Source: Acidobacteriota bacterium (GTDB lineage Bacteria; Acidobacteriota; UBA890). From it: a stretch of DNA of 64,000 nt. The position numbers and the translations under genes are program-made. The notes below the pieces were generated by a model. It was not told where the DNA came from. It did no database searches and worked only from the letters and a program-made list of their open reading frames with translations. The stretch is taken from assembly GCA_965216935.1 (NCBI GenBank), contig OZ244217.1, positions 2,512,741 to 2,576,740 of the forward strand, read 5' to 3'. Of this stretch, positions 319 to 16,153 are shown piece after piece. Within the stretch, counting starts at the first letter, position 1, and each line of letters starts with the position of its first letter.

Positions 319-1854
319 ATGAGAACACCGAAGCGGTTCTGCGAGTTCCGAATCCGACTCTCCCAGGGCTCGGCCTTCGCCATGTACAACGGCGAGCTGA
401 ATATCCCGGGTGTTCGACACGGACCGCCCACGGACCGGATCGAGTTGGTCAACGAGGGTCTGCGCAAGGATGCGATCGAGGTCCTCAGCAACCTCGTCCA
501 CCGCGAGGGGGCGGGCCGAGAAGAGATCACCCTGCTGGGAGACTTCCTCTACGACCTGCTGTTCCAGGGCGAGATCCGCGACCAGTTCCTCAAGACCTAC
601 GAGGCCGTAACCGCGGACGAGGACTGCGTGCTGCGGCTCGTCCTGGAGTTCAAGGGGGGCGAGGATTTCTCCGAGCTTCCGTGGGAGTACCTGCACCTGA
701 CCGACCTCAACGTGTTTGCCGCGGCCGTCTCGCCGATGGTCCTTTCGCGTCACGTCGAGCTCAAGAAGGAGCTGAAGGAGCCCGACGCCCCCGATCAGCT
801 GCGGCTCCTGGCGGTGGTTTCGAACCCCTCCAACGCCCGCGCTCCGGTCATTGCCGCTCCGATCGTCGACAAGATCCGGAAGATGTCCGAGGCGCATCGG
901 CTCGACGTCCGTTTGTTGGAGCAGCCCACCCGCAAGTCCTTCGAGGAGGCGTTCCGGGATCGCGACTGGCGTCCACAGATCCTGCACTTCTTCGGCCACG
1001 GTCAGTTCGATCCCGTTCGCGGCGGTTCGCTGGCGCTGTGCAAGCCGATGTCGGAGCGAGAGGACTGGCTGCCCGATGACGACCTGGTCGACATCCTCGG
1101 CGAGCGGCGGCGTCTCCGCCTGGTCGTGCTGCAGTCGTGCGAGGGAGCCGCGGGCAACGAGTTCAGCGGCGTGGCGAACAAGCTGGTGCGTGCGGCGGTG
1201 CCCGCGGTTGTTGCGATGCGCTACGAGATCGACAACGATTCGGCCACTTGCTTCGCCGAGACCTTCTATCGCCGTTTGGACGAGGGCTGGCCGATCGATT
1301 CGGCGGTGCAGGCCGGCCGCGAGGCGCTGGTGCGCCTGTCCGACGATGCGCGTCGGTTCAGCGACCGCCGCTTCGGTACCCCCGTTCTCTTCCTCCAGAG
1401 CCGCGACTACCAGACCGATCATCGCCTGATCCGGCCGAGCGAGGAAGGCGCGCAGGGCGCCGAAGCAAGCGGCGCTTCCGCCCGGGATCAGGCGCCGCGC
1501 GCCGTGCACGTCAGCTGTCCCTATTGCGGCAACCGCAGCTCGGTGATCCCCGGACGTAGTGTCTACTACTGCTCCAACGACAGTTGTCGGAGCAAGTACC
1601 GCTTCTGCCCGTCGTGCGGCGACGAAGTCATCCCGTCTGCCGAGGAGCACTGCGACGAGTGCCTGCGCCTGCGTGTCACCGCCGCGGCGGCGGGGCAGGC
1701 CGATCCCGATCGCGGAGAGCGCGGCGTGACGCCCGCGGCGGCTCGAGCTCCGCACGCGCCGGCGGACGACAGGGCGGCCCAGCCGGCCGGCGCGGCGGGC
1801 GACCGGCTCTACGTCGTCCGCGGGCAGGACCGGAGGGATCCGGCCGATGGCTGA
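319..1854 (+). CDS. CHAT-domain (caspase-like) cysteine protease with C-terminal double zinc ribbon
   Basis: Track ORF 304..1854; start set at ATG 319 (ATG 382 also possible). His/Cys dyad in CHAT-type context (ILHFFGHGQF ... LVVLQSCEGA). C-terminal cysteine pairs CPYC / CSNDSC / CPSC / CDEC. No signal peptide or TM segment. G/C-rich third codon positions. Confidence 0.85.
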   Translation: MRTPKRFCEFRIRLSQGSAFAMYNGELNIPGVRHGPPTDRIELVNEGLRKDAIEVLSNLVHREGAGREEITLLGDFLYDLLFQGEIRDQFLKTYEAVTADEDCVLRLVLEFKGGEDFSELPWEYLHLTDLNVFAAAVSPMVLSRHVELKKELKEPDAPDQLRLLAVVSNPSNARAPVIAAPIVDKIRKMSEAHRLDVRLLEQPTRKSFEEAFRDRDWRPQILHFFGHGQFDPVRGGSLALCKPMSEREDWLPDDDLVDILGERRRLRLVVLQSCEGAAGNEFSGVANKLVRAAVPAVVAMRYEIDNDSATCFAETFYRRLDEGWPIDSAVQAGREALVRLSDDARRFSDRRFGTPVLFLQSRDYQTDHRLIRPSEEGAQGAEASGASARDQAPRAVHVSCPYCGNRSSVIPGRSVYYCSNDSCRSKYRFCPSCGDEVIPSAEEHCDECLRLRVTAAAAGQADPDRGERGVTPAAARAPHAPADDRAAQPAGAAGDRLYVVRGQDRRDPADG

Positions 1855-4630
1855 TCCGCCCGACGTAGTGGCCTTGCAGCGCCGTGCGGCGATCGCCGAC
1901 GCCTATCGGGATGCAGCGCTGGCGACCGCGGACATGACGAAGGTCACAGCGGATCTCGTCGGGCTGCAGCAGAAGATCGACGAGGCGGAGCACTTTCTCG
2001 ATACCGGCGAGATGCTCGCCGACCTGGTCGGCGCGGCGTGGGCGCGCCCGGAGCTCGATGCCTTTCGGACGCTTCGTGCTCGTCTCCTGCGCGACTACAC
2101 CCACGCCGAAAGACAGCGGCTGCAGGATTCGGCGTTCGCCACGCCCCGTGCCCGCTGGGAAGAGTTCGTTCGCTCGTTCGCCCGTTGCGTCTCCGCCTGG
2201 AAGCTGGAGGTGTGCGCCGCGCTGGCGACCGTGGACCTGGGCGAGGGCGCGGCCGAAGGGCCACTGGACATGTTTCGTGAACGGGTCGAGTACCTGGTCA
2301 AGGAGCGCTGGGCCGAGGGATACCCGATCTTCGAGTACCTCGCCGAGGCCGACGAGGTGCCGCCCCGGGACCGCGGCCGGATCAACGCGCTGTGCGCGGC
2401 GGTGCAGATCTACTTCTTCGAATCGCCCGACAAGGCCCTGGAGCTCCTGAGCCGGGCCGAGGAGCTGGCTCCGGAGGAATCGATCGTCTACGAGGTCCGC
2501 GGCGATCTTTACATTCATCAGTCGAAGCTCGACGAGGCGAGAGTCCAGCTCGATCGCGCCATGGCCTTGAAGCCGGGCAGCGCCGGTGCGCTCGCCTCGA
2601 TGGGCGACCTGGCGGACAAGGGCGATACCCCCGAGTCGGCCGAGTCCTGGTATCGGGAGGCGATTCGACACCGTCCGGGCAGCTCCACGGGCTACACCCG
2701 CATGTGCCGCTTCCTCGGCCGTCCGGACGTCCCGGAAGAGAAGGCCGCCGAGATCTCCGAGCTGGTGGCGCGCTCGGTGTCGGTCGATCCGCTCGGAGAG
2801 CACACCACGTATCTGTCCGCCGGCTGGGCGTACCAGAGTCGCGACGAAACAGAGGTCGCCCGGGAGTGGTTCGATCGCGCCATCGCCAACGACCCGCTTC
2901 GTCCGGACGGGCACGCGGCGCTCGGCCACCTGCTGCTTGGCAGCGGCGCGATCGACGAGGCGCGCGAAGCGTTCGAGCGAGCCATCGAGGTGGCGCCCGA
3001 GTCGCTGGACGGGCACTGGGGACTCGCCCTGCTGGAAGAGCAGGAAGCGAACTGGGCGGCCGCCGAGGCGAGCTTCCGCAGGTCGCTGCAGGCCCGGCCG
3101 GAGTGGGGCGGGGCGATCATCGCGCGGGCGGCCTACGCGGCGTTTCGACAGGGGGACCGCGAGGCGGCGGTAGAGGAGATCGTCACCGCGCTGATGGCGG
3201 ATCCCGACAACGAGATGCTGCGGTCGTATGCCGAACGCATCGCCGACGAGACCGAAAGCGAGTTCGGCGATCTCGAGGGCGCCGACGCGGTCTACGATGC
3301 GATCGCCGGGGTGCTCGGCGACACGTATTCCGAGCGGCACGGCGAGCGCATCGCCGCATTGCGCGTGTCCGCCGCTCTGCGCAAGAACCGCGAGGCGAAC
3401 GCCCTGTACTCGGCGGGCGACTACAGCGGCTCGATCCCGCTGTACGAGGAGGCCATCGAGCTCGACTTCCACGATCCGGTGTATCACGCCAACCTTTCGT
3501 CCGCCTGGGAGCTTGCCGAGGACGTGCCGGTCGTCGACCGTCTCGACCGCGCGATCGAGTGCCTCGATCGGGCGGCGGCGATGGCCAACGACCCGGACGA
3601 GTACCGCACCCGCCAGCTCCACCTACAGACCATGCGCGAGAGCGCCGCGGTGTACGGCGAGGCGATCAGCAGGTTGCCCGTGGTGACCCCCATCGCCCTG
3701 GAGGTGGGAAACACGATCGTGCCGATGGTGGAGGGCGAAGGCGCAGATCTCGCTCCGCTCGCGCAGGAGCTCATCGAACAGATGCGGGAGAGGGTGCGGG
3801 AAGGCTTCGGCGTGAAGGTCCCCGGGATCCGGATCCGCGTCCGCGAGGGAGCGTCCGACCCGGGTGAGTTCGTCATCCTGCTGATGGAAGTACCGCTCTT
3901 GCTGGGCTCGATCCGCGATGTTCCGCTCGAAGATGATCCGGACGCCTACGAGCGCCACGCCCTCGAGCACATGCTCGGCACGCTCGAGGGGCTCCTCGAG
4001 CGGAACCTCGGTGCCTTTCTCGGAATCGAGGCGCTGGACTCCCTGCTGTGGCAGGAGGCGTCGGAATGGCGCGAGAAGTGGGTCGGCGACACGGACGAGC
4101 TGAGTCGCTTGGAGCGCGTCTTCCGGGCGATGCTCGCGGAGGGCGTGGGAATCCGCCCGATCGGCCCGATCTGCGAGCGCTACGCCGAGCTCCGCCAGAG
4201 CGCCGTGCCGGCGCACGAGATCGTCGAGCGACTGCGCGCCTTGCCGGAGGTGCGCGAGCACCTTCCCGGTGCCGAGGGACATTCCTTCTTCGCCGTGAGC
4301 GACGCGTTTCTCGACGTATTCGAGCGTTCGATCAACACCGCCGACGGACATCCTCTGCTGGCGATGCTGCCGGAGGACTGCCAGGCGACCCTCACCGCGG
4401 TGCGCAACACGGTGACCGGCGAGCGCCCGGAGGCGCTGATCGTCCACCGCCCGGTCTTGCGGCCGTTCGTGCGGCGGCTGCTGGAGTTGGAGTTCCCGAC
4501 CCTGCCGGTGCTGGCGGCAAGCGAGCTGGCGGACGCGGAGGCGGCCGTTGTCGACACCGTCCGAATGGACGGCGAGGACAAAGCCCCTGCCGCGACCGAT
4601 CGGCAGCTCGGGACCGGAGGCGAGGGATGA
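1847..4630 (+). CDS. TPR-repeat protein fused to a soluble FlhA/SctV-like cytoplasmic domain (FlhAc-like)
   Basis: ATG 1847 overlaps the CHAT stop by 8 nt (ATGGCTGA). The middle ~400 aa are TPR-like helical repeats (e.g. EANALYSAGDYSGSIPLYEEAIELD). The C-terminal ~310 aa (approx 3670-4600) match conserved FlhAc blocks: IALEVGNTIVPMVEG, GFGVKVPGIRIRVREG..GEFVILLMEVP, FRAMLAEGVGIRPIGPICERYAEL, HRPVLRPFVRRLLELEFPTLPVLAASEL. No TM export-gate region. Confidence 0.85.
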   Translation: MADPPDVVALQRRAAIADAYRDAALATADMTKVTADLVGLQQKIDEAEHFLDTGEMLADLVGAAWARPELDAFRTLRARLLRDYTHAERQRLQDSAFATPRARWEEFVRSFARCVSAWKLEVCAALATVDLGEGAAEGPLDMFRERVEYLVKERWAEGYPIFEYLAEADEVPPRDRGRINALCAAVQIYFFESPDKALELLSRAEELAPEESIVYEVRGDLYIHQSKLDEARVQLDRAMALKPGSAGALASMGDLADKGDTPESAESWYREAIRHRPGSSTGYTRMCRFLGRPDVPEEKAAEISELVARSVSVDPLGEHTTYLSAGWAYQSRDETEVAREWFDRAIANDPLRPDGHAALGHLLLGSGAIDEAREAFERAIEVAPESLDGHWGLALLEEQEANWAAAEASFRRSLQARPEWGGAIIARAAYAAFRQGDREAAVEEIVTALMADPDNEMLRSYAERIADETESEFGDLEGADAVYDAIAGVLGDTYSERHGERIAALRVSAALRKNREANALYSAGDYSGSIPLYEEAIELDFHDPVYHANLSSAWELAEDVPVVDRLDRAIECLDRAAAMANDPDEYRTRQLHLQTMRESAAVYGEAISRLPVVTPIALEVGNTIVPMVEGEGADLAPLAQELIEQMRERVREGFGVKVPGIRIRVREGASDPGEFVILLMEVPLLLGSIRDVPLEDDPDAYERHALEHMLGTLEGLLERNLGAFLGIEALDSLLWQEASEWREKWVGDTDELSRLERVFRAMLAEGVGIRPIGPICERYAELRQSAVPAHEIVERLRALPEVREHLPGAEGHSFFAVSDAFLDVFERSINTADGHPLLAMLPEDCQATLTAVRNTVTGERPEALIVHRPVLRPFVRRLLELEFPTLPVLAASELADAEAAVVDTVRMDGEDKAPAATDRQLGTGGEG

Positions 4631-6255
4631 GCGCCAAGGTGAAGCTGCCCGTCGCCCTGCACATGGGCGAGACCTTGCCGGTCGATCCGGACGGCGTTCG
4701 GGCAGCGATCGAGGGCTACGCCGAAACCTTGCTGGACAGCCTGGAGATCCCGGCCGAAGTGACGGTCGAGCTGGTCTCGGGTCCCCTCGAAGATCTTCCT
4801 TCCGGCGACGCGTCCTTCATCACCGGCCGCGAGGCGTCGGGCCTGACGCGGCACGACGAGGACGGCCGGCTCACCGCCGAGAGCGCCGCCCAGCTCGGCG
4901 CGATGGCCGTGTGCGACGGGCGCTGTCAGCTGGTGACGGCCGCGGTCGTCGACGCCGTGTGGAAGGGCTGGACCGGTGGGGAGTCCGGCGACGCCCCGGC
5001 CGGGCTGGCGGAGGCGTTGCGAGACGCCGTCCGCTACGGCGTCTCGCTCGAGAAGGTTCGCGCCGCCTGGGAGGGGTCGGCCGATCCCGACAACGTCGAC
5101 ACGTTCCGCGTCGCCGTCGACCGAGCCCTGGATGCCCGCGGCAAACCGTTGGCGCGCCTGGCCATGGGCCGCGAACTGTACGCCCGCTGCTTCGATCCGG
5201 CCACCGACGAGCCGCTGCAGCCGGAGGGCGAAGACGATCCGCTGGACGTCATACAGTCGAACATGGTCGACGGGCTCTTCTACTCGCTCGGCATGATCGT
5301 CGAGGTGGAGATCGAGCCCGATGGTGGGCTCGAGCCCTTCGGGTTCTCCACGTCCTTCTACGACCTGCCCGGTCCGCCGATGTCGAACCTCGCCGAGGGG
5401 GAATTCCTGGTCAACGAGATTCCCTCGCGGCTGAACATGCTCCACATCGAGGCGCGGGCGGTGGTCAACCCCGCCAACGGGTCGGAGAACGCCGTTGTTT
5501 CCAGTGCGCGCGACGCGGAGGCATGCCGCGAAGTCGGCGGGTACACCACATGGGGCCAGGCTTCGTACGCGGTCCTCTGCGCGTCCGCGCACGTCCGCCG
5601 CAACGCCGCGGCGTTCATCGACGGTCGATTCGCCCGCCTGTATCTGGCACGGCTGGGGAGTGCCTTTCCGACCCTCGTGCGCGCGATCGACGAGCGGTTC
5701 GACCGTGGATTGATCACCGGGGTGCTGCGTGGCCTCATTGAGGAAGAGATCTCGATCCGCGATGCGCGCGGCATCATGGAGGGGCTGCTGGCGGTGCAAG
5801 GTGTCAGCTCGGTCGATCACGGCCGTTACATCGTGTTCGATCCGTTCACCGAGCGTCGCTGCCCGGTGCCCGCGGGCAGGACACTGGAGGACCTGAGGGC
5901 GCCCGAGTACGCCGAAGCGGCCCGCGGCGCCCTGCGCGATTTCATCTCCCACAAGCACACGCAGGGGGCGAGCTCGCTGCTCTGTTTTCTGGTCGACCCG
6001 GCGATCGAGGCCGAGCTGCAGCAGCCCGAGCCGCTCACACCTTCCCGTCGCCGGGAGATCATCCGAGCCGTATACGAGGAGGCCGGAGGGCGGCCGGGCT
6101 GGTCCAGCCAGCCGGTCATCCTGACGACCGTGTCGGCGCGCAAGCGCATGCGCCGCCTGGTCGAGGCCGAGTTTCCCGAGCTACCCGTGCTGTCGTACCA
6201 GGAGCTTCGACCGGACATGAACATCCAGCCGATCGCCCGCATCAGCGTCGATTGA
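4627..6255 (+). CDS. Stand-alone FlhA/SctV cytoplasmic-domain-like protein (second FlhAc paralogue)
   Basis: ATG 4627 overlaps the upstream stop (ATGA). The upstream part of track ORF 4048..6255 is an Arg-rich out-of-context extension. FlhAc-like blocks: LPVALHMGETLPVD, ITGVLRGLIEEEISIRDARGIMEGLLAV, ARKRMRRLVEAEFPELPVLSYQELRPDMNIQPIARISV. No TM segment. Confidence 0.8.
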   Translation: MSAKVKLPVALHMGETLPVDPDGVRAAIEGYAETLLDSLEIPAEVTVELVSGPLEDLPSGDASFITGREASGLTRHDEDGRLTAESAAQLGAMAVCDGRCQLVTAAVVDAVWKGWTGGESGDAPAGLAEALRDAVRYGVSLEKVRAAWEGSADPDNVDTFRVAVDRALDARGKPLARLAMGRELYARCFDPATDEPLQPEGEDDPLDVIQSNMVDGLFYSLGMIVEVEIEPDGGLEPFGFSTSFYDLPGPPMSNLAEGEFLVNEIPSRLNMLHIEARAVVNPANGSENAVVSSARDAEACREVGGYTTWGQASYAVLCASAHVRRNAAAFIDGRFARLYLARLGSAFPTLVRAIDERFDRGLITGVLRGLIEEEISIRDARGIMEGLLAVQGVSSVDHGRYIVFDPFTERRCPVPAGRTLEDLRAPEYAEAARGALRDFISHKHTQGASSLLCFLVDPAIEAELQQPEPLTPSRRREIIRAVYEEAGGRPGWSSQPVILTTVSARKRMRRLVEAEFPELPVLSYQELRPDMNIQPIARISVD

Positions 6256-6319: not shown

Positions 6320-7714
6320 ATGACGATCGAACCCGTTCCCGGCACTCCCTTCGACTACTACCTGGTCTCCTACGACAAGCACGGGCGTGAGTACAACGAT
6401 CCCGAGGGCATGAACGGCCTCATGTCCCTGCGCATCGAGCGGGACATCGCCGATCACGGCATCACCGACGTGTTCTTGCTGTCGCACGGCTGGAAGGGCG
6501 ACGTTCCTGCGGCCAAGTCGCAATACGAGGCGTGGATCAAGGCGATGGCCGATTGCGGCGAGGACGTCGAGAAGGTCCGCGCACAGCGACCGGGCTTCAA
6601 ACCGTTGATTATCGGATTTCACTGGCCCAGCTTGCCGTGGGGCGACGAGTCCTACGGCGGGATTTCGTTCGCGGCGGGCGGTGCAGACGCCGGCCCGCCG
6701 GTGAGCGAGCCCGAGGATCCCGTCAGGGCGCAGATCGATGCGGCGGCCGAGAGCATTGCCGATTCTGCCGCGGCGCGCCAGGCATTGGAAACGATCTTCG
6801 CCGCCGCGCTCGACGACATCGCCCCGGACAACCTGCCGCCTGCGGTCGTTTCGGCCTACGAGACGCTGGCCGCCGAGGCCGGGCTCGAAACGGGCGGGGA
6901 TCTGGGGGCGGCCCCGGGTGACGACGTGGCGGCGTTCGATCCCGAGGCGTCGTATCAAACGATGCTCGAGCTCGAGGAGGACATCTACTACGGCGACTCG
7001 TCGATCGGCGGAGGCATCCTCGGCGGACTGCGCCAGCTGTCCTTCTGGAAGATGAAGAAGCGGGCCCGATCGATCGGCGAGTCGAGCGCCGCGACGTTGA
7101 TCCGACGCCTGCAAGAGATCGGCACCGACGGCCCGGGTGGTGACAACGTGCGGTTCCACCTGATGGGTCACAGCTTCGGCTGTATCGTCGTGTCCGCGGC
7201 GATCGCCGGCCGCGACGGCGACGAGCCTTTGGTGCGACCGATCGACTCCGTGCTGCTGGCGCAGGGGGCGCTGTCGCTGTGGGCGTACTGCAGCGATATT
7301 CCGGTCGCGCCGGGCAAGCCGGGGTACTTCTCCTCGATCGTCGCCGGCGGGAAGGTCGCCGGCCCGCTGGTGACGACGCAATCCATGCACGACACCGCCG
7401 TCGGTGTGCTGTACCCGCTCGCGGCCGGCGCCGCCTTCCTCGCCGCCGACGCCGTCGCCTTCGACTTCGACCCCACCCGGCCGCCCAAGTACGGGGCCCT
7501 CGGCACGTATGGCATCCAGGGGCCGGGCGTCGACCTCGATCGCCGGACCATGGGCCCGGTCGATACCGATTACGAGTTCGTTGGCGGACGGGCATACAAC
7601 GTCGAGGGCAGCGGCGTGATCAACGAGGGCGGCGGCGCCTCCGGGGCGCACAACGACATCGCCAAGCCCGAGGTAGGGCACGCATTCTGGAGCGCGATTC
7701 TGGCCGCTCCCTGA
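6320..7714 (+). CDS. Alpha/beta-fold serine hydrolase (lipase/esterase-like), cytoplasmic
   Basis: Track ORF 6320..7714. GxSxG nucleophile elbow (HLMGHSFGCIVV), an early HG motif (FLLSHGWKGD), and candidate Asp (SMHDTA) and His (GAHNDI). No signal peptide. Lies 64 nt downstream of the FlhAc-like gene on the same strand. Confidence 0.8.
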   Translation: MTIEPVPGTPFDYYLVSYDKHGREYNDPEGMNGLMSLRIERDIADHGITDVFLLSHGWKGDVPAAKSQYEAWIKAMADCGEDVEKVRAQRPGFKPLIIGFHWPSLPWGDESYGGISFAAGGADAGPPVSEPEDPVRAQIDAAAESIADSAAARQALETIFAAALDDIAPDNLPPAVVSAYETLAAEAGLETGGDLGAAPGDDVAAFDPEASYQTMLELEEDIYYGDSSIGGGILGGLRQLSFWKMKKRARSIGESSAATLIRRLQEIGTDGPGGDNVRFHLMGHSFGCIVVSAAIAGRDGDEPLVRPIDSVLLAQGALSLWAYCSDIPVAPGKPGYFSSIVAGGKVAGPLVTTQSMHDTAVGVLYPLAAGAAFLAADAVAFDFDPTRPPKYGALGTYGIQGPGVDLDRRTMGPVDTDYEFVGGRAYNVEGSGVINEGGGASGAHNDIAKPEVGHAFWSAILAAP

Positions 7715-7987
7715 GCCCGGCGTGAGTCGCTCCCTTGACGGTTGTCCCGGCGGCGTGGTCCGATCGGGTCTCCGGCGTTCGTGATTGCGGCGCCCCCGCA
7801 CGGGTAGCTTCCGATTCGGGCGTCGTTGTCGATCGCGAGGCCGGATTACATGGGGACCGCTTCGGTGTGAGCGCGCTTTCGGGTGCGATCCGGCCGGCGG
7901 TCCCTTTTCGATGGGCGAGGTTGCACGGCACCAGCGTCGCCGGAACCCCGGGAGGATCCCGGGTGGGGACCGGAAAGGACTCGTCGT

Positions 7988-9178
7988 ATGGCCCGCAAGC
8001 GCAAAGGCAAGAAACGCAGGACGGCGAAGCGCACGGCATCGTCCGGCCCCGCCGCCCCGATGACCGACGCGCAGCTCAAGCGGAAGGTCAAGGCCCGCCC
8101 GGCCCGCAAGAAACCGAAGAAGTTGGTGATCCGACACGACATCATGGTGGCCGGAACCGACACCCGGCTTCGACACAAGTCCACCGGGAGGTCGAAGTCG
8201 CTCATCGCCCGGCCGCTCGCGAAGGTGCGCTCGGGGCGGGGCATCGATGTGCAGATCGAGATCGCCGGGGCGGAGCTCGGGACGCGCGTTTTCCGTCCGC
8301 CGATCGAAGGCAAGCGGGTCAGGGTGCCGAAGATCACCGCGGCGCGGCGCGCCGAGGCCCGGCAGGGGCTGCCCGCGCTGGACGGGTTTCTACCCGACCA
8401 CCTTCCGCTGCAACCCGTGCCGCCGAAGCTCGAGGCCGCCCTGCGAGTCCCGAGCTTCATCAAGACCGTCGGTCGTATCGGCAAGACGCAACGTCGGGCG
8501 ACGACGGTGTTCGATCCCGAAGATCGTTACACGTTCTCCGACACGGCCTTTCCGTGGTGCACGGTGGGCCGCGTGGACACCGCCGGCGGCTGGGCCAGCG
8601 GTGTGCTCATCGGCCCCCGGCACATGCTCACCGTCAGCCACGCCATTGTCTGGGGGGCGGGGAACAGTGCCGGGTGGGTGCGTTTCCGGCCGTCGTATTT
8701 CGACGGCAACGCGCCGTTCGGCGAGGCGTGGGGGACGCGCTGGTACGCCTTCAAGAAGGTCGTTGGTCCCGGCATCGATCTGGACGAAGGGCGGCAGGAC
8801 TACGTCGTCATCGTGCTCGATCGTCGTATCGGCGACACCTGCGGCTGGATGGGATCGCGGACCTATTCGGAGTCCTGGGACGGCGGCAACTTCTGGCGCC
8901 ACATCGGCTACCCGGGGGACATGGCCGGCGGACTGCGTCCGTCCTACGAGCGCGACATCTCGCTCGATGGGCGCAACACCTCGAGTCACCGGGAGCTCTG
9001 GCACCAGGGTGACGTCTGGCCGGGGCAATCGGGCGGACCGTTCTTCGCCTGGTGGGCCGGCGAGGACTGGCCGCGTGTCGTCAGCGTGCAGTCCTGGGAA
9101 AACAGCCAACGCAACGGAGCCTCCGGCGGCAGCCGCATGGTCGACTTGATCATCACCGCGCGCAACGATCATCCCTGA
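7988..9178 (+). CDS. Trypsin-like (S1, V8/glutamyl-endopeptidase-like) serine protease with very basic ~170-aa N-terminal extension
   Basis: In frame with track ORF 7883..9178. ATG 7988 is preceded by GAAAGGA. His (LTVSHAIV), Asp (DYVVIVLD) and Ser (GQSGGPFF) triad motifs. N-terminus MARKRKGKKRRTAKR... No signal peptide. Confidence 0.8.
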   Translation: MARKRKGKKRRTAKRTASSGPAAPMTDAQLKRKVKARPARKKPKKLVIRHDIMVAGTDTRLRHKSTGRSKSLIARPLAKVRSGRGIDVQIEIAGAELGTRVFRPPIEGKRVRVPKITAARRAEARQGLPALDGFLPDHLPLQPVPPKLEAALRVPSFIKTVGRIGKTQRRATTVFDPEDRYTFSDTAFPWCTVGRVDTAGGWASGVLIGPRHMLTVSHAIVWGAGNSAGWVRFRPSYFDGNAPFGEAWGTRWYAFKKVVGPGIDLDEGRQDYVVIVLDRRIGDTCGWMGSRTYSESWDGGNFWRHIGYPGDMAGGLRPSYERDISLDGRNTSSHRELWHQGDVWPGQSGGPFFAWWAGEDWPRVVSVQSWENSQRNGASGGSRMVDLIITARNDHP

Positions 9179-9194: not shown

Positions 9195-9240
9195 CCGGCG
9201 GGGAGACGAGTTCTCGTTTCCCCGCCGGCGGTTTTCTTGC
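9195..9240 (+). terminator. Rho-independent terminator after the trypsin-like gene
   Basis: 15-bp stem CCGGCGGGGAGACGA / TCGTTTCCCCGCCGG (one G-U pair), loop GTTC, followed by the T-rich CGGTTTTCTTGC. It starts 17 nt after the stop at 9178. Confidence 0.65.
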
Positions 9241-9316: not shown

Positions 9317-11290
9317 TCAGAGCGTCACTTTTCGCGCCGCCACGTAGCCGCCGGCGTCGTAGCCGGCCAGCTCGAGCAGGCTCGCACCCGTGGCATCGAG
9401 GGCGAGGCTAGTGGTGCCGTCGCTGACGTCGAGCGTGCCCACCGGGCGTCCGTCCAGGTACACGTCCACGCGATCGAGGCCGAGGGTGGTCACCTGTGCC
9501 GAAAGCGAGGCCCCGGACCCGCTGGTGGACACGTCGAGGCGTCGCCGCGGCAGCCCATCAAGGATCTCCGCCGCCCGCTCGATCAGGTCCTCGTTGCTGT
9601 TGAGCAGGTCGTTGCGGGTCATGAAGTAGCGCTCGTCCGGCTTGATGCCGAGATCCTCCACCGGTGTCCCTGAGCGTTCGCCGACGCGCAACGTCCGGCG
9701 CACCGAGACCCGCATGCCGGCCCCCTGCGGCAGGTTCCGGTAGGGCGAGGCGGGGTCCGCGGGCGCGGGGTGTTGCAGTAACGCCTGCAGCAGCCCGTGC
9801 GTCCACACGTTGGCCCCGCCCGCACCGGTGTTGTCGTCGACGCCCAGGATCGGGCCGATCTCGTGGTCCTTGAATCCGGCGGCGAAGATGTCCGTGGCGC
9901 TGTAGCAGCGTGCATCGGTCACCAGCACCACCGGCCCGTGGTACTGCTGGCCGCGCCCGTTGGCGAAGTCGTCCGGGGTGATCGGGAAGGCGCGCGAGTA
10001 GACCGCGCCGGTCTCGACCGAGTCGGCGATCGAGTCGGCCCACGGGCCCAGGTCGATGCCTACCGGATTGCTTTCGTGCCGGCGGGCGATGCGCAGGTTC
10101 AGCGGCGTGTTGATGAACTGCACCGGTTCCGCCTCGACGACCGCGGGGGTGAGCGTTTGCAGCAATCCCTCCGACGCCCAGATGTGGCCGCCGCCGTTGG
10201 CCCGAACGTCGACGATGAGGCCGTCCTGCGGCAGTAGGCCGATCAAGCGGACGAACTCGTCGACGAAAGCGCCGGGATTATCGACGCTGAACGTGAAGAT
10301 GCGAACGTAGCCGAAGACTCCCGACGCGGTGTCGACCGACTCCGCCTTGAACACCCCGGACATGGTTGTCGGGATCGACGCTCCGGCCGCGGCGCGCCGA
10401 TTCAGCGCTGCCTTCGAGATTCTCTTGGACGCCTTCGCCACTACCTTGGGCGCGAACAGCATCTTCTTCGTCCGGCGAACGAAGTCGAGCTCGAGATCCA
10501 GCCCGAGACACGCAGCGTTCCGCGACCCCGAGTCGGGATTGACGGCGTCCAGGTCGGGGAGGGGAGGAGAAACGAGCCAGTCGAGCTTGATCTCGCGATC
10601 GGTGCCGCCGCTGTCGACGTAGCCGACGATCACCCAGTTCGCGTCGGGCGGCAGCGCCAGGCGCAGTGGTCGGATCGTCAGGCCGTCGACGCCGCGGGCC
10701 TGGCGGGCGGCCATATTGCTGCCGGCATGGCGGGCGGCGCTCACCTCGATTGCGCGGCGGATCGGCACGCCGTTCCACAGCTTGATTTCGACGCCCGGGT
10801 TGAAGTGCGCCGGCGTGAACCCCTGCACGAAGTGGCTGGCGACGTAGTGGGGCTCGCCGTCGTCGTCGAAGTATTCCTCCACATCGAACGGCAGGAACGC
10901 CACCTTGTCGGCGAAGGGAGCCGGCAGCAGGTAGTTGGTGTGCAGGTCGCGCACCGAATTGAAGATGTCCAGCATCTCCCGATGGAAGGCGAACTCGCTT
11001 CCCATCGTCGCCGTCGTCGACTCTTCCAGGCGATGCTGCACGAGGCGCAGCCGCTGCACCGGGTCGACGCCGTGCATTGCCTCCTTCAGCGGCAGGTGCA
11101 CGTAGTTCTCCTCGATGAGCACGAGTGCCTGTTCCACCAGGCGTTTGCGCTGCGAAAGAGACAGCACGCCGGCTTGCCCGAGGAACGTCGGCAGGTCGGT
11201 AGCCGCGCTGAGGTGGGAGCGGACGGCCGGGTGGGTCCGCTTGAGGAACGACGGCTTGGCGGAACGCTTCTTCGCCGCCTTCTTGGCCAT
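9317..11290 (-). CDS. S41-family (C-terminal processing / tail-specific-like) serine peptidase, no signal peptide
   Basis: Track ORF 9317..11290. S41 hallmarks IVDVRANGGGHIW and LVTDARCYSATDIFAAGFKD. Lys-rich N-terminus MAKKAAKKRSAKPSF. Convergent with the trypsin-like gene. Confidence 0.85.
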   Translation of the reverse strand: MAKKAAKKRSAKPSFLKRTHPAVRSHLSAATDLPTFLGQAGVLSLSQRKRLVEQALVLIEENYVHLPLKEAMHGVDPVQRLRLVQHRLEESTTATMGSEFAFHREMLDIFNSVRDLHTNYLLPAPFADKVAFLPFDVEEYFDDDGEPHYVASHFVQGFTPAHFNPGVEIKLWNGVPIRRAIEVSAARHAGSNMAARQARGVDGLTIRPLRLALPPDANWVIVGYVDSGGTDREIKLDWLVSPPLPDLDAVNPDSGSRNAACLGLDLELDFVRRTKKMLFAPKVVAKASKRISKAALNRRAAAGASIPTTMSGVFKAESVDTASGVFGYVRIFTFSVDNPGAFVDEFVRLIGLLPQDGLIVDVRANGGGHIWASEGLLQTLTPAVVEAEPVQFINTPLNLRIARRHESNPVGIDLGPWADSIADSVETGAVYSRAFPITPDDFANGRGQQYHGPVVLVTDARCYSATDIFAAGFKDHEIGPILGVDDNTGAGGANVWTHGLLQALLQHPAPADPASPYRNLPQGAGMRVSVRRTLRVGERSGTPVEDLGIKPDERYFMTRNDLLNSNEDLIERAAEILDGLPRRRLDVSTSGSGASLSAQVTTLGLDRVDVYLDGRPVGTLDVSDGTTSLALDATGASLLELAGYDAGGYVAARKVTL

Positions 11291-11380
11291 TGCGCGATGC
11301 TCCTAGGTCCCCAAGAGTTCGCGATGAGAGCCGGCTGCCCAGGGTCTCGCGGGAGATCCGAAGCACCCTGCTGCATCTTG

Positions 11381-11467
11381 GATATACCGTGGCGCGGCGA
11401 GTGTCCAGGGGAGCGGGCTGCCGCCGGCCCCGGATCCCTGGACACCCTCTCGCCGTTTGCCCATAAT
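11381..11467. promoter_or_regulatory. Divergent sigma70-like promoters sharing a 10-bp perfect inverted repeat (S41 <-> S8 intergenic)
   Basis: Inverted repeat GTGTCCAGGG (11401-11410) / CCCTGGACAC (11436-11445). Plus strand: TGGACA (11439-11444) - 17 nt - CATAAT (11462-11467), about 90 nt upstream of the S8 ATG. Minus strand: TGGACA (11407-11402) - 15 nt - TATATC (11386-11381), facing the S41 gene. Confidence 0.4.
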
Positions 11468-11554
11468 GGCGCCACCCGGGCCGGCGGCCCGGCCCGGTTG
11501 GGGACCCGGAACGACGCGCCCGCTTGCCGCGCACACGACAGGTCCGCGAACCGC

Positions 11555-13639
11555 ATGGCTGATCGTCGCGATTTCTTCGAGAATCTCGTCTACCAGACGG
11601 TGGATCGGCGGCGGTTCACGCAGCAATCGCCCGTGATGCCGGACGTCTGGATCCACTACGGCATGAATCCGGGCGAGCAGCAGCATCTGCTGATGGTCCC
11701 GGACTGGCACTACACGCCCGCGGCCCTGACCGGCGGGATCAAAGAGCGGCTGTCCGGGGACCGCGATAACGCCCGTCTGAGGCGCTTCCGGCTGGTCCCG
11801 CGCAACCCGGAGCCGGCCGCGGTGGCGCACAACCAGAGCGCGGTGGTGGCCACGCTGTGGTTCGACCAGCTCATCCGCGCCGTGCTTCCTTTGAGCGGCT
11901 GGTGGCGGGACGCCATCGCCGGCACACGTTCGCGTCGCGACAGGGATCGGCTGCACCTCGCCCTCGAAAACAAGGGCGCGCTGGTCACGTCGCTGGTGAC
12001 GGCATGGGGCGGCGACGACGCGAGGAAGGGGGCGGGTCCGGCTCGCCGCGGCGGAGCCCGTAGCGCCGGAGGCGAGCATGATGATGCCGGCGGCAGGCTT
12101 GCCGGAGGTCTCCCGCTCAGCGCCGACGTCCTCTGGCTCACCCGCGTGGCCGGCTTGCTCGCCTTCATCGCGACGAAAGCGCAGCGCGACCGCTTCGGCA
12201 AGCTGCGCAGCGAGAACAGCAAGGTCGAGCTTCTGCAGGGCTTGCTGGAAAAGAAGAACCACCGCAAGCTCGCCGGCGCGCTCGTCGACATCCTGACCGA
12301 GTCGGCGCCGGCGTACCCCGGCGACAACTATCCGCTGTATTCCGTCAACCGGAACCGTGAGACCTCTACCAGCCTGCGGGACTCGGTTGCGGCGGTGAAG
12401 GCCGACGCATCCAACCGGGTGTTCCAGGTCCGCGGCGAGGGCATCCGCTGGGCGGTGATCGACTCGGGCGTCGACGCGCGGCACGTCGCCTTCCGCCGCC
12501 GCAACGCCGACGGCGTGCCGCGGCGGCAGCCCTTCAGCCGGCCGCGACGACGGCGTCGGGCCGCGGCGGGCAGCACGCCGGGCGCCGAGGGCTTCTTCGT
12601 CAACGACACCCGGGTCGTGGCGACCTACGACTTCGTGCACATTCGCGAGTTGCTCGGCACCGAGCCGGAAGAGGTCGATGCGCTCCCGGAGGAGCGATTC
12701 CCGGCGCTCGCCCTCCCCGGAATGCGGCAGAAGCTTCGCGAGCTGATCGAGGACTACCACACCGGCGTCATCGACTGGCAGCGGCTGCAGCCGTTCCTCG
12801 AGATCCGCCACACGCCGAAGGCGTACCGGCCGCCGGTCGATCGCCACGGCACCCACGTCGCCGGGATCATCGGGGCGGACTGGCGTACGAGCGACGAAGA
12901 GGTCGACCTGCCGGGGCCGCGCCGGGAAATGACCGGCATGTGCCCCGAGATCGAGCTGTACGACCTGCGGGTGCTGGGTGATGACGGCACCGGAAACGAG
13001 TTCGCCATCATGTCGGCGATGCAGTTCGTTCGGGCGCTGAACACCGAGAAGGACTTCATGGCGGTTCACGGGGTCAACTTGAGCCTGTCGATCCCGCACG
13101 ACGTGGCGAACTACGCCTGCGGACGAACCCCGGTGTGCGAGGAGGCCGAGCGCCTGGTCGGCAACGGTATTCTGACGGTCGCCGCCGCCGGCAACAGCGG
13201 ACGGGCGCGCTACCTGACGCCCTCCAACGAGATCGACGACGGATTTCGCACCGTCAGCATCACCGATCCGGGCAACGCCGAGTCGGTGGTCACCGTCGGG
13301 GCAACCCACCGGCGGGATCCCCATACGTACGGGGTGAGCTATTTCTCCAGCCGCGGACCCACCGGGGACGGCCGCCTGAAACCCGACCTGGTCGCACCCG
13401 GGGAGAAGATTCGCTCGACCGTTCCCGACGATCGCGACGATCGCCTGGACGGCACCAGCATGGCCGCGCCCCATGTGAGCGGCGCGGCGGCGCTGATCAT
13501 GACGCGCCATCGGGAGGTGATCGGGCAACCCGGCAAGATCAAGGAGATCCTCTGCCGATCGGCGACCGACCTGGGCCGCGAGCCCTACTTCCAGGGGGCC
13601 GGAATGCTCGACATCTTGCGGGCGCTACAGGAGATCTGA
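11555..13639 (+). CDS. S8 subtilisin-family serine peptidase with ~330-aa non-catalytic N-terminal region, no signal peptide
   Basis: In frame with track ORF 10727..13639, whose upstream part is antisense to the S41 gene; start at ATG 11555. Asp (WAVIDSGVDARH), His (HGTHVAGIIGA) and Ser (GTSMAAPHVSGAAALI) triad. Confidence 0.85.
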   Translation: MADRRDFFENLVYQTVDRRRFTQQSPVMPDVWIHYGMNPGEQQHLLMVPDWHYTPAALTGGIKERLSGDRDNARLRRFRLVPRNPEPAAVAHNQSAVVATLWFDQLIRAVLPLSGWWRDAIAGTRSRRDRDRLHLALENKGALVTSLVTAWGGDDARKGAGPARRGGARSAGGEHDDAGGRLAGGLPLSADVLWLTRVAGLLAFIATKAQRDRFGKLRSENSKVELLQGLLEKKNHRKLAGALVDILTESAPAYPGDNYPLYSVNRNRETSTSLRDSVAAVKADASNRVFQVRGEGIRWAVIDSGVDARHVAFRRRNADGVPRRQPFSRPRRRRRAAAGSTPGAEGFFVNDTRVVATYDFVHIRELLGTEPEEVDALPEERFPALALPGMRQKLRELIEDYHTGVIDWQRLQPFLEIRHTPKAYRPPVDRHGTHVAGIIGADWRTSDEEVDLPGPRREMTGMCPEIELYDLRVLGDDGTGNEFAIMSAMQFVRALNTEKDFMAVHGVNLSLSIPHDVANYACGRTPVCEEAERLVGNGILTVAAAGNSGRARYLTPSNEIDDGFRTVSITDPGNAESVVTVGATHRRDPHTYGVSYFSSRGPTGDGRLKPDLVAPGEKIRSTVPDDRDDRLDGTSMAAPHVSGAAALIMTRHREVIGQPGKIKEILCRSATDLGREPYFQGAGMLDILRALQEI

Positions 13640-13642
13640 AAC

Positions 13643-14851
13643 ATGGCGACGGTGTTTACGCTGGAAGCCGTATTCGCGCGCAAGGGCGACGCGCTGCTGC
13701 TCCACTACGGGCCGTGGGAAGGCCCCGACTGGATCCTCGTCGATGGCGGGCCGCCGGGAGTCTACAAGAAGTTCCTGCAGCCACGGCTCGAGCAGCTCCG
13801 CGACGAGTTCGAGATTCAGGCCGACGACCCGATTCCCTTCGAGATGGTCATGGTCAGCCACATCGACGACGATCACATCGCCGGCGTGATCGACCTGTTC
13901 GAGGACATCGACGACGCCAAGACGAGCAATCAGCCGGCGCCGTATCGGGTCGAGAAGCTGTGGAACAACACCTTCGACGATCTTCTCGACAACGACGAGG
14001 AGGAGATCGTCTCGCGTATGGCCGCGACGGCGGCGTCGTCCAGCGCCGCCAACGGGTTGCCGCTGCCGAACATGACGCGTGAATCCCGCGCGGTGGTGGC
14101 GACCACCAGGCAGGGGCGAGACCTGCGAAACCTGGCCAAGAAGCTGCAGGCGAAGGTCAACGATCCCTTCGAGGGTCTGATCATGGCCCCGGCTTCGGCG
14201 GCAATCGCCTTCGATCACGGCCTGACCTTCACGGTGATCGGTCCGCTCGAGCATCGGGTACGTGCCCTTCAGGTGCAGTGGGACAAGGACGTGAAGAAGA
14301 TCCTCGAGGACGAGGCGAACGCCGGTCAGTCCGCCGCCTTCGGCGACACGTCGCCGTTCAACCTGGCGAGCATCTGCGTCCTCGCCGAGATGCAGGGCAA
14401 GTCGATGCTGCTGACCGGCGATGCGCGCGGCGACTTCATCATCGAGGGGCTGGAGGAGGTCGGGCTGCTGCAGGATGGCGACACGTTCCACGTCGACGTG
14501 TTGAAGATGCCTCACCACGGCAGCGACGAGAACGTCGAGGTGTCGTTTTTCGAGCGCGTCACGGCCGATCACTACCTCATTTCGGGCAATGGCGACCACG
14601 GGAATCCCGAGAAGACCACGCTCGAGATGATCGAAGAAGCCCGCGGGACGGACGAGTACACCGTTCACTTCACCTTCACCGAAAGCGCACACCTGACGGA
14701 CACCAGCCAGAAGCGACGAAAGGCGCTGAAGAAGATCACCGACTGGGTGGCGCAGAAGCCGGACAACTGCTCGGTCGTGTTCCAGGACGACGACGACGAG
14801 GTCCAGTCGGTGTACGTGGATCTGCTGGACCCGCTTTTCGAGGAGGAGTAG
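13643..14851 (+). CDS. Metallo-beta-lactamase-fold hydrolase, ComEC/Rec2-type MBL domain
   Basis: Track ORF 13643..14851, beginning 3 nt after the S8 stop. Motifs ILVDGGP, VVSHIDDDHIAG (HxDxDH variant) and VLKMPHHGSDEN, as in ComEC-like MBL domains. No signal peptide. Confidence 0.85.
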   Translation: MATVFTLEAVFARKGDALLLHYGPWEGPDWILVDGGPPGVYKKFLQPRLEQLRDEFEIQADDPIPFEMVMVSHIDDDHIAGVIDLFEDIDDAKTSNQPAPYRVEKLWNNTFDDLLDNDEEEIVSRMAATAASSSAANGLPLPNMTRESRAVVATTRQGRDLRNLAKKLQAKVNDPFEGLIMAPASAAIAFDHGLTFTVIGPLEHRVRALQVQWDKDVKKILEDEANAGQSAAFGDTSPFNLASICVLAEMQGKSMLLTGDARGDFIIEGLEEVGLLQDGDTFHVDVLKMPHHGSDENVEVSFFERVTADHYLISGNGDHGNPEKTTLEMIEEARGTDEYTVHFTFTESAHLTDTSQKRRKALKKITDWVAQKPDNCSVVFQDDDDEVQSVYVDLLDPLFEEE

Positions 14852-14985
14852 ACAGGGGGCCACGGGGATGTGGCGCGAGCGGAGTGACACACGGAGGACC
14901 GGGCGTGGTCCGATCAGACTGACACCGGAGGAGGCGGGGATTCGGGGGCGTGGCCCGCGAGGAGTCACACAAGGAGGAGAGTTTC

Positions 14986-16143
14986 ATGAGCGAGAATGGC
15001 CCTGATGTCGATCCCCGGGTTGCCTCCCCGGTCGACCCGGACAGTGCCGAGAAAGCCCCCAAGCTGCAGGACGGAATCGCCCTGTGCCTGTCGGGGGGTG
15101 GCTATCGGGCGATGCTGTTTCACCTCGGCACGTTGTGGCGGTTGAACGACGTCGGCTATCTGCCGCGCCTCGATCGAGTGTCGAGCGTCTCGGGAGGATC
15201 GATCACCGCCGGGGCCCTGGCGATGAGCTGGGGAAAGCTGAAGTTCGCCGGCACCGGTCGGGCGTCGAATTTCGTCGGCGAGGTTGTTCGCCCGATTCGC
15301 TCGCTCGCGAACCGGACGATCGACGTTGGTTCGGTGATCAGCGGGGCGCTTCTTCCCGGGTCGATCAACGACAAGGTCGAGGGGAAGTACCGTCGGCACC
15401 TGTTCGGCGACACCACCTTGCAAGACCTGCCGGACACGCCGCGGTTCGTGTTCAACGCGACGAACGTGCAGTCGGCGGTGCTGTGGCGATTCTCCAAGCC
15501 CTACATGGGTGACTATCGGGTCGGGCGGGTCGTGAGCCCGACCCTGGGGCTGGCGCAGGTGGTGGCGGCGTCCTCGGCCTTCCCGCCGGTGTTGTCGCCC
15601 GCCGAGCTCGATCTCGATCCGGGCTCGTTCACCTCCGGAACCGACTTGAAGGACCCGGCGTTCCGCCACGAGGTCGTTCTCAGCGACGGCGGCGTGTACG
15701 ACAACCTCGGCCTCGAGACCGCCTTCAAGCGTTACCAGACGTTGCTGGTGAGCGACGCCGGGGGCCGGATCGCTCCCGACGACGATCCACCGCGGGACTG
15801 GGCCCGGCATATGGTGCGCATCCTCGCCATCGTCGACCACCAGGTGCGCAACCTGCGAAAGCGGCAGCTCGTCGGCGCGTTTCGTGCCGATGTGCGCTCC
15901 GGTGCCTATTGGGGCATCCGAACGCCGATCCGCAAGTACTCGGCGAAGCACAAGCTGCACGTCCGCGACGACCGATCCTCCGAGCTCGCGCTGGTGCCGA
16001 CGCGCTTGAAGCGCCTTGAGGCCGGCCTGCAGGAGCGACTGATCAACTGGGGGTATGCGATCACAGACGCGGCGATGCGCACCTGGGTCGATACCGACCT
16101 GAAGCCGCCGAAGAGCTTCCCGTACCCGAAGGTGGGCGTGTGA
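14986..16143 (+). CDS. Patatin-like phospholipase
   Basis: In frame with track ORF 14950..16143. ATG 14986 is preceded by AAGGAGGAG. Motifs: LSGGGYRAM (oxyanion), VSGGSI (GxSxG Ser), SDGGVYDNLG (DGG Asp). Confidence 0.9.
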   Translation: MSENGPDVDPRVASPVDPDSAEKAPKLQDGIALCLSGGGYRAMLFHLGTLWRLNDVGYLPRLDRVSSVSGGSITAGALAMSWGKLKFAGTGRASNFVGEVVRPIRSLANRTIDVGSVISGALLPGSINDKVEGKYRRHLFGDTTLQDLPDTPRFVFNATNVQSAVLWRFSKPYMGDYRVGRVVSPTLGLAQVVAASSAFPPVLSPAELDLDPGSFTSGTDLKDPAFRHEVVLSDGGVYDNLGLETAFKRYQTLLVSDAGGRIAPDDDPPRDWARHMVRILAIVDHQVRNLRKRQLVGAFRADVRSGAYWGIRTPIRKYSAKHKLHVRDDRSSELALVPTRLKRLEAGLQERLINWGYAITDAAMRTWVDTDLKPPKSFPYPKVGV

Positions 16144-16153
16144 GCGATCCTTC

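Follow-up and report, generated by a model that had tools for sequence, protein, structure and literature searches.

Paired SctV/FlhA-type cytoplasmic domains without an export gate, encoded beside a CHAT protease in an Acidobacteriota genome

The CHAT-A-B locus and its two SctV-type domains

We analysed a 64-kb stretch of DNA (the window; ~68% G+C), part of a 5.87-Mb replicon of an Acidobacteriota bacterium, near the beginning of which lie the three + strand genes considered here. Their open reading frames, read directly, follow one another in the order CHAT gene, gene A and gene B, each overlapping the next. The first gene (304-1854) encodes a caspase-like CHAT protease of 516 amino acids (aa) with C-terminal zinc ribbons (Pfam CHAT, 8.2e-24; PADLOC SAVED_CHAT model, 8.6e-14), and its translation retains the His and Cys motifs HFFGHG and LQSCEG, both intact. 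Gene A (1847-4630, 927 aa) encodes an N-terminal helical region, a TPR array and a cytoplasmic domain of the SctV/FlhA type, and gene B (4627-6255, 542 aa) encodes a family-specific N-terminal domain followed by the complete subdomains 1 to 4 (SD1-SD4) of such a domain; neither protein contains a membrane segment. The 3' end of the CHAT gene shares 8 nucleotides (nt) with the 5' end of gene A, and the start codon of B lies on the stop codon (TGA) of A in an ATGA overlap (+ strand, 4627-4630), with a GGAGG ribosome-binding site ~8 nt upstream of the start codon of B. Given these overlaps, A and B are translationally coupled, and the same holds for CHAT and A. The GC content at third codon positions is 0.85-0.87 in CHAT and A (0.87 in A), matching the other genes of the window.

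By fold, A and B are members of the FHIPEP cytoplasmic-domain superfamily. They score 66.5 and 74.6 bits, respectively, against Pfam FHIPEP, both passing the gathering score of 29.1, and they cover only the C-terminal third of the profile, corresponding to the cytoplasmic domain (from position ~321 or 406 to 657). In phmmer searches of PDB sequences, Chlamydia CdsV (6wa6) is the top match for B (E = 1.6e-22) and for the last 343 aa of A (E = 5.7e-16), followed by YscV, InvA, EscV, SsaV, and FlhA. Foldseek matched the AlphaFold2 monomer models of B (pLDDT 80.6, pTM 0.82) and of the C-terminal domain of A (pLDDT 80.7, pTM 0.74) to the cytoplasmic domains of CdsV, YscV, and FlhA, with E = 8e-21 and a target TM-score of 0.84 across the whole CdsV domain for B, and with E = 2.6e-17 and a TM-score of ~0.67 for A. 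The closest solved structures are Chlamydia CdsV 6wa6 and Yersinia YscV 7alw/7qij. Additionally, B is 35-38% identical to SctV of metagenome-assembled genomes (MAGs) of Myxococcota and Bdellovibrionales, and the motifs common to the A/B family and SctV are LPVVTPIALEVG (in A), DGLFY, NPANG, EEISIRD, PVILT, and EFPxLxVLSYQEL. The original prediction, made from the letters of the sequence, had compared both proteins with Salmonella FlhA, but their nearest kin are SctV proteins of the injectisome type. In a real alignment with canonical SctV, seven of the eight sequence blocks used in that comparison fall in the right columns; block 1 of B does not.

The membrane part of the gate is missing. No 19-residue window of A or B reaches the hydrophobicity threshold of 1.8 that we used as a membrane test, the maxima being 1.60 and 1.34, while canonical relatives show a maximum of 3.1 and six strongly hydrophobic segments. 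A tblastn search of the window with a canonical SctV membrane domain returned nothing (best E = 8.4), and by Pfam no secretion, flagellar or contractile-injection gene is present among the annotated genes of the window. Core genes of a type III secretion system (T3SS; SctRSTU, SctN etc.) were found neither among the annotated window genes nor in ~25 related A/B loci examined. Pfam, PDB sequence matches, fold, and hydropathy therefore bear out the prediction of two gate-less FlhA/SctV cytoplasmic domains, and its placing of them outside any secretion locus stands for the 64-kb window, where neither an SctV gate nor a secretion gene was recognised; the profile matches pass their thresholds, and no transmembrane gate missed upstream came to light. 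Among NCBIfam equivalogs, B scores 83.4 bits against TIGR01399 hrcV (cut-off 692) and 61.6 bits against TIGR01398 FlhA (cut-off 772), and A scores 47 and 49 bits against the same models, far under the cut-offs. Since membrane domain, T3SS context, and equivalog scores all fail, A and B should not be filed as SctV or FlhA.

In A, the place of the membrane gate is taken by TPRs, just as had been predicted: the array (~aa 193-550, + strand, 2423-3497) matches Pfam TPR_2 (1.4e-24), TPR_1, TPR_8, and other TPR families. The FlhAc/SctV-C domain of A (+ strand, 3671-4561), delimited by alignment with canonical SctV, by AlphaFold2, and by Foldseek matches to CdsV and YscV, opens with LPVVTPIALEVG (aa 609), the junction of linker and SD1, which is identical in the closest canonical SctVs. 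As read from the model, its subdomains lie approximately at 3671-4003 (SD1), 4007-4255 (SD3), and 4283-4561 (SD4). A lacks SD2 (~45 residues), both in the alignment with canonical SctV and in the AlphaFold2 model; because most A proteins of other loci retain SD2, its loss is specific to the lineage of the window A.

In B, the N-terminal region (aa 1-170; + strand, 4627-5136) is predicted by AlphaFold2 to fold as a beta-alpha-beta unit over aa 1-50 and as a helical domain over aa 84-170, and has no counterpart in canonical SctV. Its conservation is modest, but it belongs to the family, since almost every one of the 150 top-scoring family representatives aligns to the B profile from ~position 47-70 onward. 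SD1-SD4 (+ strand, 5149-6249), supported by alignments, AlphaFold2, and Foldseek, comprise SD1 (~5149-5376 and ~5557-5616), SD2 with the NPANG motif (~5389-5556), SD3 (~5623-5802), and SD4 (~5899-6249). Between SD3 and SD4 lies an insert of ~30 aa (~5803-5898), of low confidence in the model and common to other B proteins. Almost every conserved SctV-C motif is retained in B; EEISIRD, the motif of SD3, is kept in B and weaker in A, and its conservation would permit the formation of a ring without showing one.

These boundaries confirm that the FlhAc-like part of A begins at ~nt 3671 and that B ends at 6255, and they change the picture of B drawn in the original prediction. LPVALHMGETLPVD, which had been taken as the start of SD1 in B, scores 0.4 bits against an SD1-start profile, against which shuffles of the same residues reach 4.2, and it is also ruled out by AlphaFold2, which places the SD1 beta-1 strand at ~aa 175-180. 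The middle of B (nt 4850-5650), suspected of being a lineage-specific insert or a diverged SD2, turned out to be neither: ~aa 51-170 are the N-terminal helical domain common to the whole B family, and ~aa 175-330 are ordinary SD1 and SD2 (DGLFY, LVNE, NPANG, TTW), which align well with SctV and resemble injectisome SctV rather than Salmonella FlhA. The protein that lacks SD2 is A, not B. The original prediction had also overlooked the upstream CHAT gene, the coupled translation, the recurring A-then-B order, and the association of other family members with immunity-type domains.

A family of paired and fused A and B proteins

An exhaustive search with a hidden Markov model (HMM) profile of five soluble B proteins gave 5283 matches at E <= 1e-3, the best 150 of which all have E < 1e-97. 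Leaving aside window B itself and P0003, the latter being part of the query profile, 148 further representatives remain among these 150, and the family comprises at least 148 clusters at 50% identity. A word-indexed search (8 matches for B, 10 for the C-terminal domain of A) had made the family look very rare, which the exhaustive search exposed as an artefact of sensitivity. The 148 representatives fall into B-type proteins, mostly of ~450-700 aa with some shorter ones probably being fragments, and long proteins (1300-2100 aa) that combine A and B in a single chain with the architecture TPR-FHIPEP-FHIPEP. The search for other TPR-FlhAc architectures, which the original prediction had recommended, was thus successful; fragment P0010 is a further A-B fusion, and two of 47 long representatives carry an FGE-sulfatase domain. 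The multi-segment membrane domain of the gate occurs in none of the 148, the most hydrophobic of which have two segments. In P0061 (1054 aa), two FHIPEP cytoplasmic domains are joined to DUF4118, the membrane module of KdpD-type sensors, and a few family proteins of ~2000 aa have two N-terminal hydrophobic segments; some members have thus been re-anchored in the membrane by an unrelated domain.

Related loci were collected by genome and metagenome scans, for which the query was an alignment of three sequences, and by contig look-ups; ~25 were inspected with simple calling of open reading frames. The order A then B was found in more than 20 loci from several phyla, and the reverse order was never seen. 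Named MAGs with such pairs are those of Povalibacter (L001), Anaerolineae (L005), Thiodiazotropha (L006), Promineifilaceae (L023), Blastocatellia (L024), and Burkholderiales (L028); further pairs lie on metagenome contigs (L003/L004, L030-L035, L050, L051, L053-L055, L057) from soil, marine, and groundwater samples. A Bipolaricaulia MAG (L007) shows only B, since its contig breaks off where A would lie.

Neighbour-joining separates A, B, and canonical SctV into three groups, so that, in the phylogeny proposed as a check by the original prediction, the soluble A and B proteins each form a clade apart from canonical SctV. The subtree of A is matched in shape by that of B, and the distances among A proteins correlate with those among B proteins (r = 0.87 between the two matrices, a value reached in none of 5000 Mantel permutations). 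Given these mirrored subtrees and this correlation, A and B are ancient paralogues that were inherited and diverged together. Co-divergence and fusions are the pattern expected of subunits in one complex, the physical interaction of A and B being putative. The best explanation of the locus is that A and B are two paralogues of the SctV/FlhA ring domain that have lost the gate and act as a cytoplasmic obligate pair. Among SctV proteins that have the membrane domain, those most closely related to B (P0006 and P0005, 719 aa) are encoded at L002 (10001-12160) and L059 (2518-4677), where they are flanked by housekeeping genes (pyrH, frr, alaS) and not by other T3SS genes; at L059, two small TPR proteins are encoded just upstream. 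The soluble family may have evolved from such orphan SctV genes accompanied by TPR genes, for which Myxococcota and Bdellovibrionota are the candidate lineages.

Two other explanations of the missing gate can be weighed against these data. The gate might be split, so that the genes for the SctV membrane domain and for all other T3SS components lie at another place in the genome and A/B contribute the cytoplasmic ring in trans: the window shows 64 kb of a much larger replicon, and the motifs kept in B would suit such a role. Yet two diverged paralogues that are always paired or fused are a misfit with a homo-nonameric gate, and TPR or TIR domains sit at the N-terminus, where the linker to the membrane domain belongs. 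With T3SS core genes in none of the ~25 related loci and the membrane domain in none of the 148 further best-scoring representatives, we regard a split gate as very unlikely. Alternatively, A and B could be decaying T3SS remnants, pseudogenes or annotation noise, in line with the lack of SD2 in A and with scores well under the NCBIfam SctV/FlhA equivalog cut-offs. This is scarcely credible in view of long intact frames, coding-type third-position GC (~0.87), and confident predicted folds, and is effectively refuted by conservation across the family, with 148 further related clusters, strongly conserved motifs, and a gene order kept across phyla.

The pair occurs in four arrangements. Type I, in which homologous CHAT genes lie directly upstream of TPR-A and B, is represented by the window, L003/L004, and L034. 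In type II (L001, L050, L053, L056), the place of the CHAT gene or TPR arm is occupied by a protein 'X' of ~700-890 aa. Copies of X are 30-42% identical (1e-88 to 1e-106 between long copies) and have no match in Pfam, PDB or PADLOC; X is all-helical, as judged by eye only, and probably fills the role of the TPR arm. In type III, a TIR domain is fused to A (L028, L055, L057), and at L030 both partners carry TIR. Type IV comprises giant TPR-A proteins of 1700-1900 aa (L006, L023, L024, L035, L051) and the single-chain fusions.

Specifically, L030 (9965-13128, contig ERZ25766727) contains two tandem TIR-FlhAc genes (518/530 and 524 aa) with a 4-nt overlap, whose products each have complete SD1-SD4 and are the basal members of the A and B clades. 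Their neighbours encode an alpha/beta-hydrolase-TPR-S protein, a MAP3K_TRAF_bd-TPR-S protein, and a CAP12-PCTIR TIR protein. The tandem seems to be the system in its most basic form and would be well suited as a starting point for experiments. L050 (1-8966) encodes an nSTAND1 NTPase-FHIPEP protein, cut by the contig end, followed by X (889 aa), A, and B; this operon, the only related locus with an nSTAND1-FHIPEP protein, therefore holds three SctV-C domains, one of them fused to a STAND NTPase.

Genes around the operon in the window and in related loci

By inspection of the ~25 loci, the neighbours of A and B are often defence-type genes. At L006, a TIR-NACHT-FGE-sulfatase gene (2219-5200) ends 16 nt before A, and the B protein (10808-13438) has 877 aa with a long C-terminal extension. 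The neighbours at L007 are a patatin and an AAA_21 ATPase matching HEC-01A and AriA. At L035, a phage-tail-sheath-like gene (1720-3291) lies directly upstream of the giant TPR-A gene, and at L003 an eCIS_core (PF13699) protein is encoded at 398-1819, a few kb upstream of CHAT-A-B; these genes are a possible link of A/B to contractile injection systems, one that is inconsistent across loci.

Downstream of B in the window, the next two + strand genes lie at 6320-7714 and 7883-9178, and no terminator-like site separates them from B. The first of these encodes a 464-aa protein without a signal peptide and without a match in Pfam, NCBIfam or PADLOC, whose GHSFG motif suggests a serine hydrolase; it may be co-transcribed with A/B. 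The second encodes a trypsin-like protein, also without a signal peptide (Pfam Trypsin_2 5.6e-4, under the gathering score), and could close the transcription unit; it is followed on the + strand by a strong terminator-like hairpin of 15 pairs and a T run (9195-9228). Neither gene is conserved beside A/B elsewhere, no homologue of the 464-aa gene having been found in the related loci, and their membership in the system is kept as uncertain. Convergent to the trypsin-like gene lies an S41 peptidase gene (- strand, 9317-11290; best NCBIfam match chlamydial CPAF, 1.1e-17, under the cut-off). The S41 peptidase and the trypsin-like protein both lack a signal peptide and have very basic N-termini rich in lysine and arginine, features that are uncommon in their protease families.

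Further + strand genes encode an S8 subtilase (probable start ~11555, end 13639; PADLOC 'subtilase' 1.5e-42), an MBL-fold protein (13643-14851; Lamassu LmuA 2e-46, Avs1a 3e-33), a patatin (14950-16143), and a 1178-aa protein (16154-19690) without a Pfam or PADLOC match. No LmuB/SMC-like partner of the MBL-fold protein was recognised, and the + strand run 10727-19690 may be a second, separate defence module beside CHAT-A-B. Beyond the operon and up to 19.7 kb the genes are all hydrolases without signal peptides; a secreted Met-zincin ends the stretch. An Rfam scan of the window found no rRNA, tRNA, CRISPR repeat or other Rfam family.

Such hydrolases could be read as cargo. A and B might form a cytoplasmic sorting or docking platform for export or injection by a machine other than a T3SS, e.g., an extracellular contractile injection system, keeping the ancestral binding of chaperones and cargo and handing cargo such as the neighbouring hydrolases to that machine. 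SctV-C is indeed a docking ring for chaperone-substrate complexes (7qij and FlhA-FliS/FliT complexes are among the fold matches), and the sheath-like gene of L035, the eCIS_core protein of L003, and the run of hydrolases in the window fit this explanation. Against it, the window holds no sheath, tube, baseplate or other export genes, most related loci lack such genes, fusions with TIR, STAND, and CHAT are unexpected on a cargo loader, and the downstream hydrolases are not conserved beside A/B. On balance we consider a docking platform quite unlikely.

Proposed function and comparison with known systems

The cytoplasmic domains of SctV and FlhA assemble into nonameric rings, in which SD3 and SD1 make the contacts, and they bind complexes of chaperone and substrate in the region of SD2. 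We propose, with slightly better than even confidence, that A and B are a soluble scaffold that controls effector enzymes in a conflict system. In this model, A and B are predicted to assemble through their conserved SD3/SD1 surfaces as a hetero-oligomer, for instance one mixed ring or a stack of two. A would contribute its variable N-terminus as a sensor or adaptor (TPR, in the window) or as an effector (TIR, elsewhere), and the effector of the window would be the co-translated CHAT protease. A ligand from an invader or from stress would cause CHAT molecules to be gathered or released, and ligand-dependent assembly or rearrangement of the scaffold would switch CHAT on, leading to proteolysis, growth arrest or cell death. 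Of the two proteins, B is the likelier to bind the ligand, a plausible role since it keeps SD2, the SD2-SD4 cleft, and almost all SctV-C motifs. The A/B module would then be an NTPase-independent counterpart, built on the ring of a secretion gate, of STAND/NLR or TPR-CHAT immune modules.

A bolder form of this proposal, which we hold only tentatively, makes the SctV-C pair the core of an unrecognised class of NTPase-independent immune or cell-death complexes. The ring would detect foreign proteins via the old chaperone/substrate cleft, and its assembly or conformational change would activate TIR NADases or CHAT caspase-like proteases, which would make it a resistosome- or apoptosome-like hub of independent evolutionary origin.

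Several observations weigh against a conflict system. Some pairs have housekeeping-like surroundings, such as a 2-hydroxyacid dehydrogenase gene (L023), a radical SAM gene (L024), and an IMP dehydrogenase gene (L035); CHAT lies beside A in only three distinct loci, and many A/B pairs have no recognisable effector nearby. Soluble-type relatives were found neither on viral contigs of IMG/VR nor on plasmids of PLSDB, which holds only canonical sctV, and mobility like that of defence genes is therefore not supported. Neither A nor B is covered by a PADLOC model. The formation of a ring or hetero-oligomer is a prediction, the structure models being monomers, and mechanisms that depend on SD2 apply to B alone, as the window A lacks it.

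Most of the weight beyond the proposed scaffold for effector control falls on four rivals, namely the split gate, the decaying remnant, the docking platform, and a housekeeping or developmental proteolytic regulator, in which the scaffold would govern CHAT in division, differentiation or protein quality control and immunity would play no part. CHAT proteins of the HetF type act in this way in cyanobacteria, and HetF is the best NCBIfam match of the window CHAT protein (7.6e-20, far under the curated cut-off). The several loci among housekeeping genes and the lack of viral and plasmid copies also speak for such a regulator. It accounts poorly, however, for the fusions with TIR_2 and STAND NTPase, for the FGE-sulfatase and TPR-S partners, and for the LmuA/Avs1-like, patatin, and AAA_21 neighbours; TIR, STAND, FGE-sulfatase, TPR-S, patatin, and AAA_21 modules are the usual vocabulary of conflict systems. 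The patchy spread over distant phyla is likewise unlike that of a core developmental gene, and we judge a purely housekeeping role unlikely.

To our knowledge, the SctV/FlhA cytoplasmic ring has until now been known only from flagella and injectisomes. The window points to a large and phylogenetically broad family in which this ring domain is duplicated, free of the membrane, and joined to TIR, CHAT, STAND or TPR modules. If the proposed function is correct, a major part of a secretion machine was recruited into cytoplasmic signalling or immunity. It would also explain the label 'FHIPEP family type III secretion protein' in genomes without a T3SS; one source gives this misleading label to a homologue, and the label can mislead T3SS censuses. 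Furthermore, naturally gate-free soluble ring domains could be used in studies of SctV ring assembly and ligand binding. Full-text searches, mostly outside subscription journals, found no papers tying FHIPEP, FlhA or SctV to TIR, CHAT, STAND or defence, and NCBIfam has no model specific to A or B. Within the literature and databases searched, the A/B family is apparently undescribed.

Compared with the SctV/FlhA export gate, B shares the four-subdomain fold SD1-SD4 and A shares SD1, SD3, and SD4. A and B differ from it in lacking the gate of eight transmembrane segments and, in the window, T3SS partner genes nearby, and in being two diverged paralogues that are always paired or fused. Moreover, their N-termini carry additional modules (the B-specific domain, TPR or TIR), B has an extra stretch inserted between SD3 and SD4, and the window A is without SD2. 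A closer precedent for the joining of TPR and SctV-C is PDB 7qij, among the fold matches of B, in which the TPR-type chaperone complex YscX:YscY sits on the YscV ring. As TPR proteins there dock on SctV-C, the partnership of TPR and SctV-C is plausible as an inherited interaction. YscX:YscY serves the secretion of early substrates, whereas in the A/B pair one of the paralogues carries the TPR covalently, as part of its own chain, and neither substrates nor a secretion apparatus are evident for A/B.

The combination of a TPR array with a CHAT caspase-like protease recalls TPR-CHAT (Csx29) of the type III-E CRISPR 'Craspase', in which TPR and a CHAT protease are governed by a partner complex. 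Here, in contrast, TPR and CHAT reside on separate proteins and the TPR is fused to SctV-C; the window has neither a Cas7-11 gene nor a CRISPR array, and no Cas protein domains or Rfam CRISPR repeat family were found in it. With STAND/NLR systems (Avs, bNACHT, and the effector-NTPase-repeat conflict systems of Kaur et al., eLife 2020, PMC7159879), the A/B loci share a swappable effector (CHAT, TIR), an oligomerising core (predicted here), sensor arrays of TPR or FGE-sulfatase, and similar neighbourhoods. The main texts of that survey and of its 2021 successor (Aravind lab) do not mention FlhA, SctV or FHIPEP. The likeness is one of logic, not of core homology: no NTPase family matches CHAT, A or B in Pfam, NCBIfam or PADLOC, and where STAND/NLR systems have a P-loop NTPase (NACHT, NB-ARC, nSTAND), the core here is the SctV-C pair, which, if the proposed function is correct, would be a new NTPase-free oligomeric scaffold for effector activation.

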